Source: Candidatus Latescibacterota bacterium (GTDB taxonomy: Bacteria; Latescibacterota; UBA2968; GCA-2709665). From it: a DNA stretch of 64,000 bases. Both the position numbers and the translations under genes were made by a program. The DNA lies in the NCBI GenBank assembly GCA_965248435.1, contig OZ252100.1, positions 2,016,001 to 2,080,000 on the forward strand, read 5' to 3'. The notes below the pieces were generated by a model, which was not told where the DNA came from, searched no databases, and saw only the letters and a list, made by a program, of their open reading frames with translations. Below are positions 3,383 to 58,892 of this stretch, piece by piece. Position 1 is the stretch's first letter, and every line of letters starts with the position of its first letter.

Positions 3383-4750
3383 ATGCACAAAGTCAGCCTG
3401 GTCACATTGGGGTGCCCCAAGAACACCGTAGACTCCGAGCGAATGTTTCGGATGCTGGAACTGAACGGGTACGCGCTGTCGGACATCCCCGAAGAGGCGG
3501 ACCTGATCATCGTCAACACGTGCGGATTCATTCAGCCAGCAAAGGAAGAGTCCATCTCAGCTGCGCTGGAGGCGGCGGACTACAAGCGGACCGGCCGCTG
3601 CAAAGGCTTGATCGTCACCGGCTGTTTGGCCGAACGTTACACAGAGGACCTGAAGAAGGAGCTGGTTGAGGCAGACCTGATCATTGGATTGGCCGCGGAG
3701 AAGGATATCGTGCGCCACTGCGACCGGCTTCTCGGCGTCGAGAGGGCAGGCGTCGCCCTGGACGACAGATCGCGCCACCTGCTGACCCCGAGGCCGTGGG
3801 GCTACCTGCGGATTTCGGACGGTTGCGACAGAAAGTGCGCCTTTTGCGCGATTCCAGGCATAAAAGGGCCCAGCAAAAGCGAATCCATCGAATACCTCGT
3901 TGCAGAAGCGGTCCGAATGGTGGCCGGCGGCGTCAAAGAGATCGCGCTGGTTGCTCAGGATACGATGCGGTATGGCGCCGACATCTACAACAAGATTCGC
4001 CTGACCGATCTTATTCGTGAACTGATTCGCATCGAAGGGCTGGAATGGCTGCGACTGCTCTACACCTATCCTTCGGGGTGGAGAGATGACCTGATCGATC
4101 TCCTGTCGACTGAAGAAAAGCTCTGTGCCTACGTGGACATGCCGATCCAGCACGCGTCCGACCCGATCCTCAAGGCGATGAATCGAGGCACCACCCGATC
4201 CGCGATAGGCAAACTCATCCGAAACCTGCGGACTCGAGTGCCCAACCTCACGATCCGGTCGTCTGTCATCGTAGGTTTCCCCGGTGAAGAAGAGCATCAC
4301 TTTCAGGAGCTGGTCGACTTTGTAGATGAAGCCCAGTTCAGCCGATTGGCAGGATTCCTCTACTCTCACGAGGAGGGCACGACAGCCGGGATGAAAATCG
4401 ACACGGTCTCAGAATCAGAGAAACGGGAGCGGCTCGACCGACTGATGTCCCATCAGGCCATGATCTCTGCAGAAGTCAACAGGCAGTACATCGGACAAAC
4501 ATTCGACGTGCTCGTTGAAGAGGTCTCTGACGACCCGGATTTCGATTACGTTGGGAGAACGAGGATGGACGCACCGGAAATCGACGGCCAGGTCTTCATA
4601 TCGGGCTCTGCGAGAGTTGGGGAATTCGCGGATGTTCGGATCACAGATTCACTCGACTATGACCTGATCGGCCGCGCCGTCGACAACACCCCGCTCCTCA
4701 ACATCTCTCAGCCAGACGTCAGCTCGGCGTCCACCCGATCCGCCACATGA
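3383..4750 (+). CDS. rimO: Ribosomal protein S12 methylthiotransferase
   Basis: TLGCPKN, NTCGFI, radical SAM CDRKCAFC, DAPEIDG, C-terminal TRAM domain. Confidence 0.93.
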   Translation: MHKVSLVTLGCPKNTVDSERMFRMLELNGYALSDIPEEADLIIVNTCGFIQPAKEESISAALEAADYKRTGRCKGLIVTGCLAERYTEDLKKELVEADLIIGLAAEKDIVRHCDRLLGVERAGVALDDRSRHLLTPRPWGYLRISDGCDRKCAFCAIPGIKGPSKSESIEYLVAEAVRMVAGGVKEIALVAQDTMRYGADIYNKIRLTDLIRELIRIEGLEWLRLLYTYPSGWRDDLIDLLSTEEKLCAYVDMPIQHASDPILKAMNRGTTRSAIGKLIRNLRTRVPNLTIRSSVIVGFPGEEEHHFQELVDFVDEAQFSRLAGFLYSHEEGTTAGMKIDTVSESEKRERLDRLMSHQAMISAEVNRQYIGQTFDVLVEEVSDDPDFDYVGRTRMDAPEIDGQVFISGSARVGEFADVRITDSLDYDLIGRAVDNTPLLNISQPDVSSASTRSAT

Positions 4751-42785: not shown

Positions 42786-42920
42786 ATATAACGGTCTCGG
42801 CACCCACGAACCTGCCGAGCGGGCGCGGCGGTTGCCACAAGTTGTGATTTAAAGCAAGCGCCGTGAACGAGGTTTGGCGAAGGCGCGAATGCGCCGGAGC
42901 CGGGGGTGCGCGTGTTACAC
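42786..42920 (-). repeat. attC-like site, long form
   Basis: ataacggtctcggcaccc...gggtgcgcgtgttacac. Confidence 0.85.
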
Positions 42921-47396: not shown

Positions 47397-47534
47397 GGTT
47401 AACGTTCTCGCGGGCTGCGAACCTGCCAAGCTGGCGCGGCGCTTGCAAACGAGGTTTCAAAGCAAGCGCCGTGACAGCGACAGGCAGGTTGCGCGAGGGG
47501 CGAATGCCACGAGCCGCAGCCCGGCGTGTTAGCC
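47397..47534 (-). repeat. attC-like site, long form
   Basis: Family arms plus an extra ggcgcttgc...gcaagcgcc branch. Confidence 0.92.
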
Positions 47535-49279: not shown

Positions 49280-49420
49280 CTATAACGTTCTCGCGGGCTG
49301 CGAACCTGCCAAGCTGGCGTGGCGCTTGCAATCAACGTCTATCAAAGCAAGCGCCGTGACAGCGACAGGCAGGTTGGGCGAAGTGGCGAATGCCACGAGC
49401 CGCAGCCCGTCGTGTTATGC
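49280..49420 (-). repeat. attC-like site, long form
   Basis: Family arms plus extra branch. Confidence 0.92.
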
Positions 49421-50304: not shown

Positions 50305-50470
50305 TATGATCTATTTGTAGATTATCTTGGTTCGAAGAAGACCTCTGGGGAGGCCGGATTGCGCATGAAGGCATTGACCTTGGACGTTAGATAGGCCCCC
50401 CGCCTTCTTGGCCCATGCCGAGGAGTATCCGAGACCCGAGAGTCTGTATCACAAGGCTGGTAGGCCAGGT
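50305..50470 (+). ncRNA. Predicted IS110 bridge RNA (target-binding and donor-binding loops)
   Basis: Stem ggggaggcc/ggcccccc encloses guides TTGCGCAT and ACGTTA (match target TGCGCAT|AACGT); stem tggcc/ggcca encloses GAGTATC and ACAAG (match donor junction GAGTATCT|TGT). Confidence 0.8.
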
Positions 50471-50513
50471 GCAAGGTCGGGGGACCAGAGGTACAAATAA
50501 GGAGGGAGAGATC

Positions 50514-51506
50514 ATGAAGCAAGAGAATCTGTTGGGGGTAGATGTCTCAGCCCGGGAGCTGGTGGTCGCGATCCGTCGCTCAGGGAAAGCGTATCCACTG
50601 GCAAGATTTCCCAACACAGGCGAAGGGCACCGTCGATTGATCAAGTGGGCGACAAAGTGGGGAAAGCCGGCTCGAGTGGGAGTCGAGGCCACAGGCATCT
50701 ATAGTTTTGAGGTGGCGTTGGCGTTGTATCGGCATCCGAAGACTCAGGTGATGGTAATCAACCCCAGAGCGCTGAGGAATTTCTCTCAGGCTTTGATGAA
50801 ACGGGGGAAAACCGACCCGATCGATGCGGAAGTGGCATTGGAGTATGTGCAGCGGATGCCCTTCCAGACGTGGCAGGCACCCCGTGATGAAGTACTTGAC
50901 CTGCAGGCGATTACACGCCGGATCGCGCAGATCAAAGTCGAGATCAACCGGGAAGGAAACCGGCTTCACGCTTCCACGCAACGCCCATCGGTCGCGTCTG
51001 CGGTCGCCTTGGACATCGAAGAGCATGTTGAACATCTCAAAGCGCGTGTGCAGCAGCTGAAAGCGCGGGCTCTGGAGCTCATTGAGGGGGAAGCCACTCT
51101 GCGCGAGAAGTTCGCGCGATTGACTTCCGTTCACGGGATCGCAGCAACCAGCGCGATGGGCATTCTGGCAGAGATTTCGATGTTGCCTGCCGACATGAAG
51201 CCTGCCCAATGGGTGGCCTACGCAGGCCTGGATCCACGACCCCACGAATCGGGAGACACGATTCAGAAGCGCCGAGTGATCTCCAAAGCGGGGAATAAGT
51301 ACTTACGAACCGCCTTATATATGCCAGCGCTGGTGGCCATTCAACAGCAGCCCAATGTGAAGGCGTTCTACGAAAAACTCATCAGTCGAGGCAAGAAGCC
51401 CATGCAGGGGGTCATCGCGGTGATGCGAAAGCTGCTTCACTCCATCTGGGGTATTCTCCAACACAACCAGGACTTCGACGGAGAAAAGTTCTACAAAATG
51501 GCTTGA
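50514..51506 (+). CDS. IS110 recombinase (DEDD RuvC-like + Tnp20)
   Basis: GVDVS, VEATG, KTDPID, AYAGLDP..HESG, ISKAGNKYLR, AVMRKL. Confidence 0.95.
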   Translation: MKQENLLGVDVSARELVVAIRRSGKAYPLARFPNTGEGHRRLIKWATKWGKPARVGVEATGIYSFEVALALYRHPKTQVMVINPRALRNFSQALMKRGKTDPIDAEVALEYVQRMPFQTWQAPRDEVLDLQAITRRIAQIKVEINREGNRLHASTQRPSVASAVALDIEEHVEHLKARVQQLKARALELIEGEATLREKFARLTSVHGIAATSAMGILAEISMLPADMKPAQWVAYAGLDPRPHESGDTIQKRRVISKAGNKYLRTALYMPALVAIQQQPNVKAFYEKLISRGKKPMQGVIAVMRKLLHSIWGILQHNQDFDGEKFYKMA

Positions 51507-51519
51507 CCACCAAGAGAGT

Positions 51520-51612
51520 ATCTAACGTTCCCGCCACTTGCGAACCCGCCCCCAGGCGGGTTGCCGCAGGCCAAGGCGCGGATGCGCCGCAGCGCAAGTG
51601 GACGTGTTATGG
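51520..51612 (-). repeat. attC-like site (outer end replaced by IS110)
   Basis: taacgttcccgccacttgcg...cgcaagtggacgtgttatg. Confidence 0.9.
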
Positions 51613-52628: not shown

Positions 52629-52772
52629 CCATAACGTTCTCGCGGGCTGCGAACCTGCCAAGCTGGCGCGGCGCTTGCCACCCACGATTGTCTTAAGCAA
52701 GCGCCGTGACAGCGATAGGCAGGTTAGGCCGGAGGCGCAAATGCGCCGGAGCCGCAGCCCGGCGTGTTAGCC
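52629..52772 (-). repeat. attC-like site, long form
   Basis: Family arms plus extra branch. Confidence 0.92.
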
Positions 52773-53213: not shown

Positions 53214-53243
53214 GGCGTCCCTTCATTGACGTGCATCGATTGC

Positions 53244-53328
53244 GGCTAACGTTCTCGCGGGCTGCGAACCTGCGCAGCAGGTTGGACGAAGTGGCGAATG
53301 CCACAAGCCGCAGCCCGGCGTGTTAGCG
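53244..53328 (-). repeat. attC-like site
   Basis: ctaacgttctcgcgggctgcg...cgcagcccggcgtgttagc. Confidence 0.92.
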
Positions 53329-53365
53329 GCAGTCGCCTAAGGGGTCTACTCTCCAAACCGTTGCT

Positions 53366-54451
53366 CTATCTCAGGCTAACGAGCCAATCTCCGATGGCTC
53401 GGAGTGCGTCCTGCGAAATCTTCGCGTCCAGAGAAGCGTACTCCTCAGGAGATCCTGTTTCAGCCCTTTGCAAATGGTGATTCAACCCATCCATCAACTT
53501 AACGTCGTAGTCAGCCTTCCCCCTCCTGTTCAGCACTCCCTCCATTGCGTCCATGTTCCCGCTCGGGGGCACTTGCCAGTCCTTCTCACAAAAGATAGCC
53601 AGGATTGGGCAGTGAACCTCAGTCAGTGGTTTGGTTGGGTCATACCCAAGTAGCCATTCCAACCAAGGGGTAATCAGTTCGGGGAGGCTCTCCTTGAGAA
53701 TCTGAAGTGAATTGAGCCCAAGCTTTTCATACTCCGTGCTAAGTTCTGTTGACCGACCTGAGACAAGAGCAGCAGCAGTCCTCTCGATTTCGGTGTTGGG
53801 TTTGCGTCGTCTGACTAGAGCAAAGACCCGCGTCCAAAACAAACGCTCGGACTCGACCAAATCATCGCTCGCTCCATGGGAGATGAGACGTATTTTTCGC
53901 TGGAGGTGCAGATTCTCCTCGATGCCCGCGGTGGGGTGAGCCATCAGGACGATGAACGCCGTATCCGGAATCCGTGACGCGACCATCGACGCAATCAGCG
54001 CCCCTTCACTGTGGCCGATTATACCGATTTGCTTAGGTGCTATCCTCTTATGTTTCCGTAAGAAGGCGAATGCAGCAGTCACATCCCCAGAGAGGTCTGC
54101 CGTTGTTGCTCCAGATAAGCTTCCCGAGGACCGACCTACACCCCGTTTGTCGGAACGCAGGACGGCAAAGCCAATTGATGTAAGATATTGTGAAAGTTGC
54201 ACAAGACTTGGATCGTCGCGAGCCGTGGGCCCATCCCCAGGTACAAGGATGGCTGCAGGAACTGACGATTCGGAGTCCGGCATATCTAAAATGCCAGAGA
54301 TAATAACTCCCGCATTTTTGAACTCCACGGATTCCGAGCTGGATTCCGCCTTGGAGGCACCAACCAGCAGTAGTACACCCAGCGACAGGAATAGCCTGGC
54401 GAATAGATGCCTTGCCATTACTTCGACTTTCTTTGGAGATTGATCACTCAT
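53366..54451 (-). CDS. Secreted alpha/beta hydrolase (cassette)
   Basis: DKRGVGRS, GHSEG, KDWQV, LNH; alternative start at 54418 begins a signal peptide. Confidence 0.88.
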   Translation of the reverse strand: MSDQSPKKVEVMARHLFARLFLSLGVLLLVGASKAESSSESVEFKNAGVIISGILDMPDSESSVPAAILVPGDGPTARDDPSLVQLSQYLTSIGFAVLRSDKRGVGRSSGSLSGATTADLSGDVTAAFAFLRKHKRIAPKQIGIIGHSEGALIASMVASRIPDTAFIVLMAHPTAGIEENLHLQRKIRLISHGASDDLVESERLFWTRVFALVRRRKPNTEIERTAAALVSGRSTELSTEYEKLGLNSLQILKESLPELITPWLEWLLGYDPTKPLTEVHCPILAIFCEKDWQVPPSGNMDAMEGVLNRRGKADYDVKLMDGLNHHLQRAETGSPEEYASLDAKISQDALRAIGDWLVSLR

Positions 54452-54462
54452 ACGGCGATTGC

Positions 54463-54537
54463 CGCTAACGATTAAGCGTGTATCCGGAGTCGGAGAAGCG
54501 TGGACGGGAGCGGGATTCCGGATACACGGTGTTGAAC
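54463..54537 (-). repeat. attC-like site of distinct sequence abutting the recombinase/HUH element
   Basis: ctaacgattaagCGTGTATCCGGAgTC...GATTCCGGATACACGgtgttgaac. Confidence 0.8.
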
Positions 54538-54742
54538 GAAGCCGCTTCACCTGCCTATGGGGATTGGATGAGTGATTCTTGTGTAAGGACCGCTGGGCTG
54601 GCCCAGTCATCGGACCGTATTTGAAGCTGTTTGGAGGGGCCGATGTCGCAGGATCCCATAGTCGCTCTACCAAGCTCAAAGAGTGGACAGACTACTGCCG
54701 TGTTGGGTGGTTGGGCTTGCGGACAAGGGATGGTGTAGGAGC

Positions 54743-55933
54743 TCAAGCTACGGCAACATGTGCCGGAGGCGCTCGCAGAGGCGCGAGGGTTCCGACTGTG
54801 AGCATAGGGCCTCCGCACTGCGCACAGACCTGAAGATCGATGCCTGTTACCCGGAACAGAAGGTCCTGCCAGGTCGCCTTTGTGGCTGCGGAAGCCGTCG
54901 TGCATACAGTGCCCAGGAGCCTACGGCATCGTGCGAGCTTTTTCCGGCGACCCCGATTGCTGAGCAGTCCGTAGTGCCGGATCTTCACGAAGCCATCCGG
55001 CAGGATGTGAAGCAGGAACCGCCGGATGAACTCGTAGGCATCGACGGTCATCAGCTTCCGTCGGTTGCCGGCCTGGCGGTCCCGGTAGTGGAATGAGACC
55101 CGGTCGCCCTCACAGGCGACCAGCCGGTGGTTGGAGATGGCGATCCGGTGCGTGTATCGTCCCAGATAGGCCACGATGCGTTCTGGACCCGCAAAAGTCG
55201 GCTTGACGTAAACGGTCCATTCCCTCTGGTAAAGACCCCGAAGCAGATCGAAGAACGCATCTTCCAGTGGAGCACTCAATCCCGGGAACGCCAGAAGGCC
55301 TTCCTGGTGCGCGTCCTTCAGGAACGCAAGGAACTTCCCCCGGAACAGTCGGGACAGAACTTTTACGGGTAGAAAGAAGCCCCGTCGCGCCGCCTTCCAT
55401 TCCTGACCGTCGTGGGTCAGCCCACCTCCAGTTACGATACAGTGCAGATGCGGGTGGTCGATGAGTGTCTGAGACCACGTATGAAGCACGGCGGTAAAGC
55501 CGATCTGCGCTCCAAGATACTTCCGTTCCCGCGCCAGCTCCAGAAGACTCTGCGATGCGGCTTTAAACACCAGGTTGTAGATCAGCTTCTGGTTCCGCAG
55601 AGCAAGCGGCCGCAGGGGCTCGGGCAACGTGAAGACGACGTGGAAGTATGGGATCGGAAGGAGATCCTCTTTACGAGCGTCGATCCATCGTTCGGTCGTC
55701 AGGAACTGGCACTTCGTACAGTGCCGGTTGCGGCAGGAGTTGTAGGCGATCCGCTTCGTTCCGCACTGCCCGCACACTTCCACGTGTCCGCCCAGCGCAG
55801 CTGTTCGGCAGATCTGGATGGCTCGCATGGCCCGCTTCTGCCGAAGCGGCATGTGATCACCGTAGTGTGCTTGATACCCATCTCCGTGGACTCGGAAGAT
55901 GTCGGCGACTTCGAGAGGCTGTGACATGGCCAA
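54743..55933 (-). CDS. IS91-family (Y2/HUH) rolling-circle transposase with Zn-binding domain
   Basis: CRTAALGGH, SCRNRHCTKCQ, YFHVVFTLP, HPHLH (HUH), YLGRY (Y2), RFLLHILP. Confidence 0.93.
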   Translation of the reverse strand: MAMSQPLEVADIFRVHGDGYQAHYGDHMPLRQKRAMRAIQICRTAALGGHVEVCGQCGTKRIAYNSCRNRHCTKCQFLTTERWIDARKEDLLPIPYFHVVFTLPEPLRPLALRNQKLIYNLVFKAASQSLLELARERKYLGAQIGFTAVLHTWSQTLIDHPHLHCIVTGGGLTHDGQEWKAARRGFFLPVKVLSRLFRGKFLAFLKDAHQEGLLAFPGLSAPLEDAFFDLLRGLYQREWTVYVKPTFAGPERIVAYLGRYTHRIAISNHRLVACEGDRVSFHYRDRQAGNRRKLMTVDAYEFIRRFLLHILPDGFVKIRHYGLLSNRGRRKKLARCRRLLGTVCTTASAATKATWQDLLFRVTGIDLQVCAQCGGPMLTVGTLAPLRAPPAHVAVA

Positions 55934-55939
55934 CCTCTG

Positions 55940-56791
55940 CTACAAGGTCGGCTTGTCTTCATCTCCCAAAAGGTCCAGGGGGCTTCTGATACGCGTGAGA
56001 TCGCGAGTGGTGACGTGGAGGTAGACGGTGGTGGTTCGCAGGCTCGTGTGACCCAACAGTTGTTGGACGAAACGGACGTCCACTCCGTTGTCCAGAAGAT
56101 GTGTGGCGAAGCTGTGACGCAGAGAATGGACACTCGCACGCTTTTGTATCTCGGCGCGTCGGCAGGCCTGCTCGAAGACTTTCTGGACACTGCGGGCGTG
56201 GAGCGGTGCATCCGGTCTTTCGCCAGGGAACAGCCAATCGCGAGGCTGGTAGCTGCGCCAGTAGACGCGGAGTGCCTTTAACGCCTCCTGGGCCAGAAGC
56301 GTCTCTCGCTCTTTTTGGCCTTTGCCCCGCACACGGATCAGCATCCGGTCACTGTCGATATCGGAAAGCTTTAGCCCGATGGCCTCACTCAGTCTGAGCC
56401 CACCAGAGTAAATGACCATCAGCAGCGTACGGTGTTTCAGGTTGTTGGTCCTGTCGATCAGCCGCTGCACTTCCTCTGTGGAGAGTACCACCGGGAGCTT
56501 CTTTGCCTTCTTCGCACGAGGGATGCCCCACTCGACCCAGTCACGCTTCAACGTCGTTTGGAACAGAAACTTCAGTCCGCTGTATACCTGGTTGACATAG
56601 CTTTGGGACAGCTTCCGCTCAGTGATCAGATAGTGCAGATAGGCGCGGATCTCTTCTTCGCTGAGCCGGTCGGGCGGTGTCTTGCAGTAACGACACAGCC
56701 CGGCCACTCCGCTCACGTACGCCTTCTGCGTATCCGGATCTAAACCTTTCAACTGCATGTCCCGGATCATTCGCTTCCGATGCTTGGTCAT
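55940..56791 (-). CDS. Tyrosine recombinase, IntI-related but lacking the IntI-specific insertion
   Basis: LPVVLSTEEV, YSGGLRLSE, HSLRHSFATHLL, LLGHTSLRTTTVY; only 283 aa with a short LFP-to-HxxR segment. Confidence 0.92.
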   Translation of the reverse strand: MTKHRKRMIRDMQLKGLDPDTQKAYVSGVAGLCRYCKTPPDRLSEEEIRAYLHYLITERKLSQSYVNQVYSGLKFLFQTTLKRDWVEWGIPRAKKAKKLPVVLSTEEVQRLIDRTNNLKHRTLLMVIYSGGLRLSEAIGLKLSDIDSDRMLIRVRGKGQKERETLLAQEALKALRVYWRSYQPRDWLFPGERPDAPLHARSVQKVFEQACRRAEIQKRASVHSLRHSFATHLLDNGVDVRFVQQLLGHTSLRTTTVYLHVTTRDLTRIRSPLDLLGDEDKPTL

Positions 56792-56942
56792 GGCTCTCTC
56801 CTTCTGCTGATGGTGGACGTTGTTAGCAGAAGGAGGATGCGAAGCACAGAGCCATTTGCAAAGTGGCTCCGGACTTGCACGGTATCATATCCTGGTTGTC
56901 AAAGAGCAAAGGCCTTGCAGCAGGCCACCGCGAAGCGGTTTA

Positions 56943-57021
56943 GTTCAACTTCTGCATTCGCGTACTTCGTGGATTCCACCAAGGTACGAGTATCTGCGCC
57001 CTACGCCTATCCCGGTTAAAC
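56943..57021 (-). repeat. Possible attC-like hairpin at the other end of the element
   Basis: gttcaac...gtacttcgt...acgagta...gttaaac; imperfect pairing. Confidence 0.4.
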
Positions 57022-57074
57022 GTACTTAACACGCCCTTGTTCGTGAATCCCTTTCTATAGAGACACGTGAATTT

Positions 57075-57163
57075 GACAACCGAGTGCCGCGTAATACGGC
57101 CGATCCCGCGAAGGATGTTGGGCCAAAGAGCGAAGCGACCGAAGCGCAAAGCCCGTGTTACAC
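57075..57163 (-). repeat. Degenerate attC-like site
   Basis: Right half gttgggcc...gaagcgcaaagcccgtgttacac resembles the family. Confidence 0.55.
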
Positions 57164-57847: not shown

Positions 57848-58892
57848 CGAGTTCAATAAGGAAGTGCAACACTTAGGGTAGCAACTGTCCTATCCTAAGT
57901 GTATGGGAAACAATTACAAGCATCTTACGATAGACGAACGCGAGCAGATTGCGCTTTGTCGAGCCACTGGTGCAAGCCTTAGAGATATTGCCAAGGCCCT
58001 TGACCGGAGCGCCAGCACGATTTCAAGAGAGTTGAAACGTAATCCGTCCCCGATAGCTGAGAGTTACTCGGGCCTCCAGGCTCACAGAAGGGCTGAGAAA
58101 CGTAAGCGGGAGGCCGGCAAGCGGAAACGGCTGAAGAATCCGGTTATCCGGCGATATGTCGAGACCAAACTCAAGCAAGGATGGTCTCCCGAGTTGATCG
58201 CTGGGAGGCTTCCCGAGGAGCGTCCGAGCGCGGGTATCAGCCACGAAGCCATCTACCAGTATATCTACGATCCAAAGGTGCACAAGCAGCGGGATCTGGT
58301 TGCTTGCTTATCCCGAGCTCACAAAAAACGAAAGCCGCGGTGGCATACCCGAAAACACCGGGAAAGCCACATTCCAGGCCGTATTTCGATCGATCGACGT
58401 TACATCGAAAAACGGAAACAACCTGGCCACTGGGAATCCGACACCATCATCTCTCGTGAGAGCAAACAGGCCGTTGGCGCTTGTCTTGAGCGATCGTCGA
58501 GATACCTACACCTGGCTAAGCTGGCAAAGAACGGACCCTCGGAGGTCGCCGAAGCGATTAATCGACGCCTTGGGCGACATCCTCCCCACATGAGGAAGAG
58601 CATCACATATGACAACGGATCCGAAAACGGCCAACATCAACGGGTCAACGAGGTGCTTGGCACCAAATCCTATTTCTGCAAACCGTTCCACAGCTGGGAG
58701 CGAGGCGCTGTGGAAAACGCTATCGGTCTGGTCCGCAGATACCTCCCCAAGAAGACAGACTTCTCAAAGGTCAGCAAACACGAGTTAAAGAAAATTCAGA
58801 ACCGGATCAACAACCGACCAAGAAAATGTCTTAACTTCAAAACACCAGCTGAAGTCTTCAAGTCCAAGTGTTGCACTTAGTCATTGAATCCA
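57848..58892 (+). mobile_element. IS30-family insertion sequence
   Basis: Imperfect ~27-bp IRs with perfect core AAGTGCAACACTT (57862) / AAGTGTTGCACTT (58866). Confidence 0.9.
57903..58880 (+). CDS. IS30-family transposase
   Basis: STISRELKRN, WSPE, GHWESD, TYDNGSE, WERGAVEN, RPRKCL. Confidence 0.95.
   Translation: MGNNYKHLTIDEREQIALCRATGASLRDIAKALDRSASTISRELKRNPSPIAESYSGLQAHRRAEKRKREAGKRKRLKNPVIRRYVETKLKQGWSPELIAGRLPEERPSAGISHEAIYQYIYDPKVHKQRDLVACLSRAHKKRKPRWHTRKHRESHIPGRISIDRRYIEKRKQPGHWESDTIISRESKQAVGACLERSSRYLHLAKLAKNGPSEVAEAINRRLGRHPPHMRKSITYDNGSENGQHQRVNEVLGTKSYFCKPFHSWERGAVENAIGLVRRYLPKKTDFSKVSKHELKKIQNRINNRPRKCLNFKTPAEVFKSKCCT

Follow-up and report, generated by a model that had tools for sequence, protein, structure and literature searches.

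ISfinder lists a recombinase-bearing subgroup among the insertion sequences (ISs) of the IS91 family; for ISAzo26, no statement of a target or a mechanism was found in the open literature searched. IS91 itself inserts without target duplication at a target tetranucleotide, has palindromic ends and forms single-stranded and double-stranded circles, and a study of 2026 reports that only its bottom-strand single-stranded circle inserts (PMC13181058). In integrons, the substrate recombined by the integrase IntI is the bottom strand in its folded form, and the single-stranded DNA (ssDNA) of the CTX phage, likewise folded, is integrated by XerCD (PMC4792948). Here we describe an element located at positions 54470-56949 of a 64,000-nt stretch of DNA (called here the window; positions 2,016,001 to 2,080,000 of contig OZ252100.1, Candidatus Latescibacterota bacterium), within an array of integron-type cassettes. 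This unit is an active ISAzo26-like insertion sequence of the IS91 family, in which a tyrosine-recombinase gene precedes the HUH transposase gene. We are highly confident that it is an IS91-family element present in six genomic copies, that its limits are cassette-like and that it inserts in a site-specific manner, the target being the entry site of cassette arrays.

ISAzo26-like elements have the same pair of genes, in the same order, and the same end layout, the difference being that the target is defined here to the nucleotide and is an array entry site. Like IS91, IS801 and IS1294, the element has a Y2 HUH transposase (NF033538) with an N-terminal zinc-binding domain, causes no duplication, is oriented 5' of a tetranucleotide (GTTN, 3' of the transposase-side end) and has subterminal palindromes at its ends; a single-stranded circle would be expected by analogy. 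It differs from IS91 in that the recombinase replaces Orf121, the target is a structured site of ~130 nt and the ends are mutually complementary over 15 nt. With the integron cassettes moved by IntI it shares G|TT boundaries, inverse cores of the RYYYAAC/GTTRRRY type (GTTCAAC and GTTGAAC), a start complementary to its own inverse core, a constant orientation, the use of the entry site over the array sites and a bottom strand that folds better than the top strand (-29.8 versus -24.0 kcal/mol). It departs from the small cassette with one promoterless open reading frame (ORF) and no recombination genes, as the unit of 2,480 bp (2.48 kb) carries two DNA enzymes of its own, the recombinase is without the IntI insertion and the genome is without IntI; the internal loop of its predicted folded site is also one-sided. 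ISShvi3 presumably carries a recombinase gene as well. It was noted in passing, as a single case, in a canonical IntI integron of Shewanella (PMC9229058). For a recombinase that has no I2-type domain, the nearest precedent, by analogy, is the XerCD/CTX-phage system: there, as would be the case in our proposal, an Xer-like recombinase lacking that domain works on a near-perfect stem folded from circular ssDNA (PMC4792948), whereas here the recombinase is encoded by the element and the ssDNA would come from the HUH transposase and not from phage replication. IS1111-attC elements and group IIC-attC introns are likewise specialised on integron sites (PMC9229058), but they interrupt attC and use other enzymes, whereas the present element is located at the boundary of a cassette, where the sites stay intact. 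In the open literature searched, no paper was found on recombinase-bearing IS91 elements that have cassette-like ends or target entry sites, nor on recombinases without the IntI insertion at the head of arrays, although the supplements of PMC4889954 and PMC9229058 may bear on this.

The element, its proteins and its ends

The two genes are arranged head to tail on the minus strand, which is the strand of the cassette genes, and lie between inverted repeats. The features of the element are as follows (window coordinates).

54470..56949, minus strand: whole mobile unit, 2,480 bp, the segment common to the six genomic copies
54466..54469, no strand: TAAC junction, in gene direction G|TTA, which is the start of the next cassette
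54470..54530, minus strand: terminal hairpin at the ori-type end, downstream of the transposase gene (fold prediction)
54531..54545, minus strand: right inverted repeat, in gene direction GCGGCTTCGTTCAAC, holding the R''-like core GTTCAAC
54554..54562, minus strand: conserved CCCCATAGG box, just upstream of the right repeat
54743..55933, minus strand: IS91-family Y2 HUH transposase, 396 aa (Pfam and NCBIfam matches)
55940..56791, minus strand: tyrosine recombinase, 283 aa, Xer/IntI-like, without the IntI-specific insertion (Pfam, NCBIfam and PDB matches)
56935..56949, minus strand: left inverted repeat, in gene direction GTTGAACTAAACCGC, whose first letters are an R'-like core

The transposase gene begins ~10 nt past the stop codon of the recombinase gene, and an ATG two codons inside its listed TTG start is a possible alternative start. 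Its product matches Y2_Tnp (PF04986, 2.3e-61) and the IS91 zinc-binding domain (PF14319, 5.3e-32) and scores 449.6 bits on NF033538 (transpos_IS91, cut-off 125). The recombinase, which contains KKLPVVLSTEEV, matches Phage_integrase (PF00589, 2.2e-43) and a SAM-like N-terminal domain (PF13495, 3.5e-21), and its catalytic residues R133, H222, R225, H248 and Y257 are invariant in an alignment of 14 homologues. Its scores lie below the cut-offs of the NCBIfam models TIGR02249 (191.4 versus 265) and NF011946 (133.4 versus 435), as well as of the Xer models NF040815 (XerA_Arch, 214.9 versus 220), XerC (188.1 versus 335) and XerD (184 versus 330); the genome has two separate Xer-like genes besides the element recombinases. 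The best PDB match of the recombinase is Vibrio IntI4 (2a3v, E 8e-35), in a split alignment where residues 18-174 and 201-273 align to VchIntIA 19-177 and 246-318, so that ~42 IntI residues are missing, and the match to TIGR02249 is likewise split (positions 7-176 and 237-314). An earlier note on this DNA had described the recombinase as IntI-like but devoid of the IntI insertion; given these split alignments the description is correct, the insertion near patch III being absent.

The two inverted repeats match at 13 of 15 positions (GTTGAACGAAGCCGC at 54531-54545 versus GCGGTTTAGTTCAAC at 56935-56949), for which a hand estimate of chance gives ~0.01 expected between two 100-nt end windows. They are kept in all six genomic copies, in a relative's element, in a Clostridia element and in ISAzo26. 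The inverse cores GTTGAAC and GTTCAAC lie inside the 15-nt repeat at the two ends, with the hairpin just inside one of them. Read in gene direction, the element opens with the R'-type core letters, and its first 15 letters are complementary (13/15) to the repeat just inside the hairpin; the hairpin itself is predicted to have a 15-bp stem and a ~23-nt loop, after which 7 nt remain before the G|TT junction. Equivalent hairpins follow the right repeat in relatives, and the CCCCATAGG box is also found in the elements of G005 (a genome with related copies, see below), Oceanirhabdus and Alphaproteobacteria and in ISAzo26.

When the two ends are joined, the window plus (bottom) strand gives the fold of -29.8 kcal/mol mentioned above, compared to -15.0 +/- 2.7 for 200 shuffles. 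The predicted stem has ~17 bp in its outer part and 15 bp in its inner part, separated by an internal loop of ~5 nt on one side only, and is capped by a loop of 23 nt; this is the plan of the attC sites of the array (R-type stem, one-sided internal loop, inner stem, loop), where the one-sided loop measures 4 nt. The presence of inverse cores at the ends and of an attC-like stem on their joining is a new observation.

Copies, junctions and empty sites

Eight matches to the element were found in its own genome, and six are full-length copies with 96-100% identity. Over the shared core three of them are 99.8-100% identical and the three others 97.6-97.9%, and both reading frames are open in all six. 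At every left junction (window plus strand) xxTAAC is followed by the element from GATTAAG, and at every right junction the element's GTTCAAC is followed by a member of one diverged family of ~130-nt structured sequences, called here the module. All six copies have one orientation, that of the cassettes, and are inserted at the same point, TAA|C (G|TT). The AAC at 54467-54469 is common to both junctions and the crossover is thus not placeable within these 3 nt. Contig pieces from public sequencing runs start at 54466 and stop at 56950, which matches the limits of the element.

Two copies of the module are unoccupied, and in these TTAAC runs straight into the first letters of the module. The element therefore entered at one exact point, with the AAC common to both junctions. 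Target duplication is absent: the empty sites have one AAC and the second AAC of the occupied sites is the end of the element's GTTCAAC, an end present in every copy and in the relatives, although a 3-nt duplication is not formally excluded. The end downstream of the transposase gene adjoins GTTA in all six copies and in G005. For five of the six copies, the flank past this junction is a true cassette start with its own attC 0.6-1.5 kb off; in five copies, and likewise at the empty site D, the flank can pair with the inverse core of the attC that comes next at a distance of 0.6-2.2 kb (13-15 of 16 letters for four copies and D, and the first nine letters for copy L005), which marks a true cassette start.

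These alignments bear on the extent of the unit as first proposed. The earlier note had placed the unit in array orientation between GTT/AAC boxes, and both points stand, as both genes lie on the strand of the cassettes and the repeats are kept in the six copies and in relatives. Its limits of 54463-57021 have to be narrowed, since the mobile unit is 54470-56949 and 56950-57021 is target DNA. Its att-like hairpin at 54463-54537 exists, with a 15-bp inner stem and a far end that abuts the next cassette, but is part of the element and not a site apart. We had considered that the hairpin might be the attC of a separate cassette; this was rejected because the alignment of the flanks of the six copies shows that the hairpin moves together with the rest of the IS and is thus a part of it.

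Joined ends or an emptied window site were not seen among the assembled contigs of the public runs, which cannot show rare forms, and this says nothing either way; nor is the summed depth of these contigs a measure of copy number. The assembly of run X6 (organism B) holds a copy 95-99% alike; one of its right flanks is that of our copy L006, and another flank directly past GTTCAAC is unrelated to the module. At site C (G000:C1:5351182-5351330), the module is preceded by a 13-nt piece identical to the left-end region of the element (CCACCGCGAAGCG), which may be a relic of an older or partly deleted copy.

The target module and the cassette arrays

The right flank of the window copy, and the cassette beyond its left end, contain the following features.

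56950..57080, minus strand: target module, a ~130-nt structured attI-like site outside the IS, whose 3' end (gene direction) is the insertion point
57081..57161, minus strand: R''/L'' half that is left of the attC belonging to the HIT cassette upstream, joined to the module (partial nhmmer attC match, genome 2073101-2073167)
53240..54469, minus strand: next cassette, an alpha/beta-hydrolase ORF with attC 53240-53332 (Pfam hydrolase families; attC fold)

The module family has about ten members in the genome, including the two empty ones. The possibility that this ~130-nt flank is a part of the element was discarded in view of its divergence, of the empty copies and of its context with solo recombinases: the module differs between loci with identical element cores (mean column identity 49%). 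In the genomes G004, G019 and G039 it lies directly behind intact or nearly intact solo recombinase genes, that is, recombinase genes with no adjoining transposase gene, and is followed by G|TT, the first cassette and attCs of the window type. This position behind a solo recombinase and before the first cassette identifies the module as the entry (attI-like) site of these arrays. Its identification as a canonical attC was rejected, as there is no partner inverse core at the far end. RNAalifold gave 5 pairs only on the module; an outer stem that we named ourselves is paired in 76% of cells, versus 22-40% with slid partners.

Upstream of the modules in the element's own genome there are only relics of such solo recombinase genes. 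At site A the relic is a C-terminal piece of 74 residues, 59% identical to the element recombinase, with His at the position of the catalytic Tyr, and a 17-residue recombinase tail precedes two other module sites. The window copy lies mid-array because its module is joined to half of the attC of the preceding cassette, and two arrays seem to have been fused by deletion at 56950-57161. The window module (56950-57080) also keeps ~15 nt that resemble the 3' end of a lost recombinase gene. Elsewhere, a phage-type integrase gene (G000:C1:4624078-4625166) and its pseudogene copy (4650323-4650835, one TAA) each precede a module by ~250 nt and belong to a segmental duplication whose copies are 26 kb apart, and a tRNA-like stretch is found near the module at L003 and at site E.

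The part of the window beyond ~39.4 kb consists, up to its end, of short genes on the minus strand that are interspersed with a family of repeats having an invariant TAAC...GTTA pair and a covarying stem. Their consensus fold (8 window sites and 5 from three relatives) contains 25 pairs, 13 of them with compensatory changes. The earlier note had spoken of atypical hairpins; the surrounding sites turn out to be ordinary covarying attC-type sites. Each cassette start and the inverse core of the cassette's own site are complementary, as in the hydrolase cassette, where the reverse complement of the flank and the 3' end of the attC agree at 15/16 letters, and such complementarity is the trace left when circular cassettes recombine at G|TT. 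The attC profile (nhmmer) gave 102 matches (E <= 1) in about ten arrays of the 5.67-Mb genome. Despite this number of attC matches all six insertions are at modules, and an array begins directly downstream of four of the six copies and of the empty modules A and D, which thus stand at array heads. A six-frame search of the genome gave 23 matches to TIGR02249 and none is an IntI over the cut-off, the best being the element's own recombinases.

Among the arrays are those at C1:946773-992726, 1439400-1445618 and 3853477-3871856. In the window, long attC variants of 129-138 nt (47400-47531, 49283-49417, 52632-52769 and 42789-42917) contain in their interior an additional segment that recurs from site to site (families D6 and D8) and may be a small insert or a nested site. 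The array also includes two other transposase genes, both running against the direction of the cassettes: an IS110-family gene at 50415-51506 (plus strand), which ends 17 nt before the attC at 51523-51609, and an IS30-like gene at 57903-58880 (plus strand), whose rve match is below the Pfam cut-off.

Related elements in other genomes

In 36 of the 80 related loci, from many phyla, an IS91 transposase gene lies directly behind the recombinase gene, and the same end layout recurs wherever both flanks are readable. A separate IntI gene was found in none of the 80 loci. The nearest annotated relative is on an Aromatoleum plasmid, where the recombinase gene is 48.9% identical and the next gene is annotated as 'IS91-like element ISAzo26 family transposase'. 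The ends of this Aromatoleum ISAzo26 consist of a left repeat GTTGGACTAAACCGC, an CCCCATAG box, a right repeat ending in GTCCAAC and a hairpin. Matches at E <= 1e-40 occur in 413 plasmid records, and among 8,000 candidates there are 7,680 homologues with E <= 0.001.

Genome G005, a relative, carries a related element at three places (recombinase 56% and transposase 61% identical) and so offers an independent replicate. Two of its copies lie 178 nt behind an intI gene, past a hairpin of ~150 nt, and are followed by a toxin-antitoxin cassette with its attC; one of these intI genes is intact (464.5 bits on TIGR02249) and the other truncated. The third copy splits an ordinary attC, whose inverse cores are still perfectly complementary across the insertion. 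The canonical intI gene of G005 (L111:505-1521, and L114) is co-oriented with the cassettes and has the IS copy at its entry site, and the truncated second copy of this intI-plus-IS arrangement lies 335 kb away. A co-oriented layout ('intI transcribed toward attI') has been described for Treponema (PMC3607928), and the arrangement of G005 fits this Treponema-type layout by analogy. The attC and module profiles of our genome gave no match around the intI of G005, and the direct repeats seen there are unconvincing.

Solo recombinases heading arrays

Recombinases of the same family are also found at the head of arrays, in loci where no transposase gene adjoins. Those of the three relatives, and the loci with arrays in other phyla, are as follows.

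L126:17811-18761 (G004), no strand given: solo recombinase gene with co-oriented array
L125:17698-18654 (G019), no strand given: solo recombinase gene with co-oriented array
L127:17916-18712 (G039), no strand given: solo recombinase gene with co-oriented array
L080, L069, L033 and L031, downstream of position 4700, no strand given: attC-type sites of other-phylum loci with arrays

The solo recombinases of G004, G019 and G039 are 51-52% identical to that of the element and have no IntI insertion, and these relatives are without IntI. Solo recombinases score 190-247 bits on the IntI model (cut-off 265), in two stretches. Solo members also head co-oriented arrays in a Gemmatimonadaceae genome and an Ignavibacteriota genome, in Flavobacterium and in Algibacter, and in the latter two the successive sites show the start-to-own-core complementarity of real cassettes. 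Array-heading recombinases without the insertion occur in at least four lineages.

When the 80 loci were scanned with a crude detector of AAC...GTT palindromes, 22 sites fell downstream of the 44 solo genes but 2 upstream, with at least one downstream site in 13 of the 44 loci and at least two in 3; as at least one of the hits (L076) is apparently false and the detector overlooked 3 of 4 sites at L031, these counts give a rough asymmetry only. Of five loci examined, two have arrays, and none was seen at L035, L041 and L025.

A quick maximum-likelihood search was made with 46 proteins. These comprise 13 from the 36 transposase-linked loci, as many from the 44 solo loci, 6 from the 120 IntI homologues listed and 14 from the own genome and its relatives. 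The only support is the Shimodaira-Hasegawa-like approximate likelihood-ratio test (SH-aLRT), and the placement of two long branches (own 1177k and 4624k) is not reliable. In this tree, a single clade of 16 rows unites the transposase-linked recombinases (SH-aLRT 99). The array-heading proteins of G004, G019 and G039 stand beside it, inside a clade of 24 rows (95), and IntI forms a separate clade (100).

Discussion

The reading that we put forward, from sequence comparison and with about an even chance of being right as a whole, is that an IS91-type IS is organised and inserts like an integron cassette, by a relay of its transposase and its recombinase. The transposase would cut the bottom strand behind the AAC of either end and would yield a bottom-strand single-stranded circle, as experiments have established for IS91; nicks at these places would release exactly the strand that folds best, which is also the one that integron integrases use in attC sites (PMC4792948). 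The joined ends would then fold into a duplex-like, attC-like site, in which the one-sided loop of ~5 nt predicted by folding resembles the one-sided 4-nt loop of the array's own attCs. The element's own recombinase would exchange one strand with the entry site at G|TT, and replication would resolve the product, as in the insertion of integron cassettes or the XerCD-mediated integration of the CTX phage. The interpretation of the earlier note is supported in part. It had proposed a self-mobilising cassette; the anatomy, the six copies, the empty sites and the insertion at the entry site agree with this. That the element might instead drive the array as a whole, as the note also proposed, is plausible: with IntI absent from the genome and the rest of the family no longer intact there, mobility of the resident cassettes may depend on the six recombinases carried by the IS copies alone.

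Several observations weigh against this relay. Catalysis of any step is a prediction here, and the junctions also fit the recombinase-free chemistry of IS91: the GTTA target differs from GTTC in a single letter, and the GTTG with which the element begins recalls the GTTC where IS801 and IS1294 are cleaved at ter. The recombinase is without the IntI insertion, the missing region is called IntI-specific (PMC4889954), and the title of Messier and Roy 2001, as it stands in the reference list of PMC4792948, calls the domain necessary for activity. The covariation of the module stem is weak, as 32 of 500 shuffles reach the observed score, and no attC lies within reach of copy L003. Oceanirhabdus has three identical copies at unrelated AT-rich sites, with ~13-15 extra nt at the left end. 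Finally, these and the alphaproteobacterial copies also show the layout of inverted repeat plus hairpin, and no arrays were seen in the genomes of such relatives. This layout is a trait of the whole ISAzo26-like group, including genomes without arrays seen, and therefore not a local adaptation to this array.

The main alternative, which we consider possible but less likely, is that the transposase alone inserts the element by the ordinary rolling circle of IS91, with a preference for GTTA in DNA prone to be single-stranded, such as hairpin-forming attI/attC-type sites, and that the recombinase has another task, such as the resolution of tandem or dimeric products, excision, or regulation like that by Orf121 in IS91. 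The known features of IS91 agree with this, namely insertion without duplication, GTTC, CTTG or GTCC 3' of the element, palindromes at the ends, single-stranded circles and an upstream accessory ORF that modulates the reaction (PMC13181058, PMC10288648), as do the GTTA 3' of all six own copies and of those of G005, the generality of the end layout across the ISAzo26-like group and the Oceanirhabdus copies away from array sites. A four-letter target, however, cannot explain why six of six copies are at one position of a ~130-nt site family with ~10 members when ~100 attC boundaries offer the same GTTA. Moreover, the recombinase gene is intact in all six copies and is kept beside the transposase in 36 of the 80 loci.

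It is also conceivable, but improbable, that the element is a passive passenger placed by attI x attC recombination through a host IntI or a since-lost array-heading recombinase, its own genes serving only for spread between replicons. In G005, two copies at the entry site behind an intact IntI (464.5 bits) and one in an attC form the pattern expected of IntI, and the relics of recombinase genes upstream of our own modules agree with such a past. Against this, the genome has neither IntI nor an intact array-heading recombinase, and yet three copies are 99.8-100% identical over the core and therefore indicate recent movement, while the relic at site A is truncated, with the catalytic Tyr replaced by His. 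That the cores and the hairpin are plain IS termini and the location reflects tolerance of insertion without targeting is scarcely credible, for although the array holds the IS110-type (50415-51506) and IS30-type (57903-58880) genes and many ISs occur in the integron arrays of a Shewanella survey (PMC9229058), the junctions are exact to the nucleotide and constant in orientation at all six own sites and at those of G005, empty sites exist, and the split attC of G005 has perfectly matching cores.

Beyond the relay by the two enzymes of the IS, the array-heading recombinases may be a larger finding than the element itself. The IntegronFinder survey states that recombinases without the insertion found near attC 'are not IntI' and that they co-localise with <3 sites (PMC4889954). 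From their sequences, the arrays headed by solo recombinases look like an integron-like platform with a non-canonical integrase. A tentative generalisation, which we put forward as doubtful, is that a widespread Xer/IntI-like family without the IntI insertion runs its own co-oriented arrays, made of a recombinase, a structured entry site and cassettes with covarying attCs, and that standard tools would take such genomes for carriers of attC clusters lacking an integrase. A branch of this family would have been fused with an IS91 transposase into a self-mobilising cassette, in which the HUH enzyme would supply folded ssDNA and the recombinase would insert it at the entry site, and in this genome nothing but that branch would still drive the about ten arrays. 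If this were true, the family would be a living counterpart of the ancestor proposed for integrons, in which Xer is combined with folded ssDNA.

Elements of this kind are common, and the results raise the question of the role of the recombinase in recombinase-bearing IS91 elements; they also bear on what maintains clusters of attC sites in genomes that have no IntI. If the two-enzyme model is true, it would link rolling-circle transposition with the folded-ssDNA recombination of integrons, and the element would be a compact and self-contained system for site-specific insertion.

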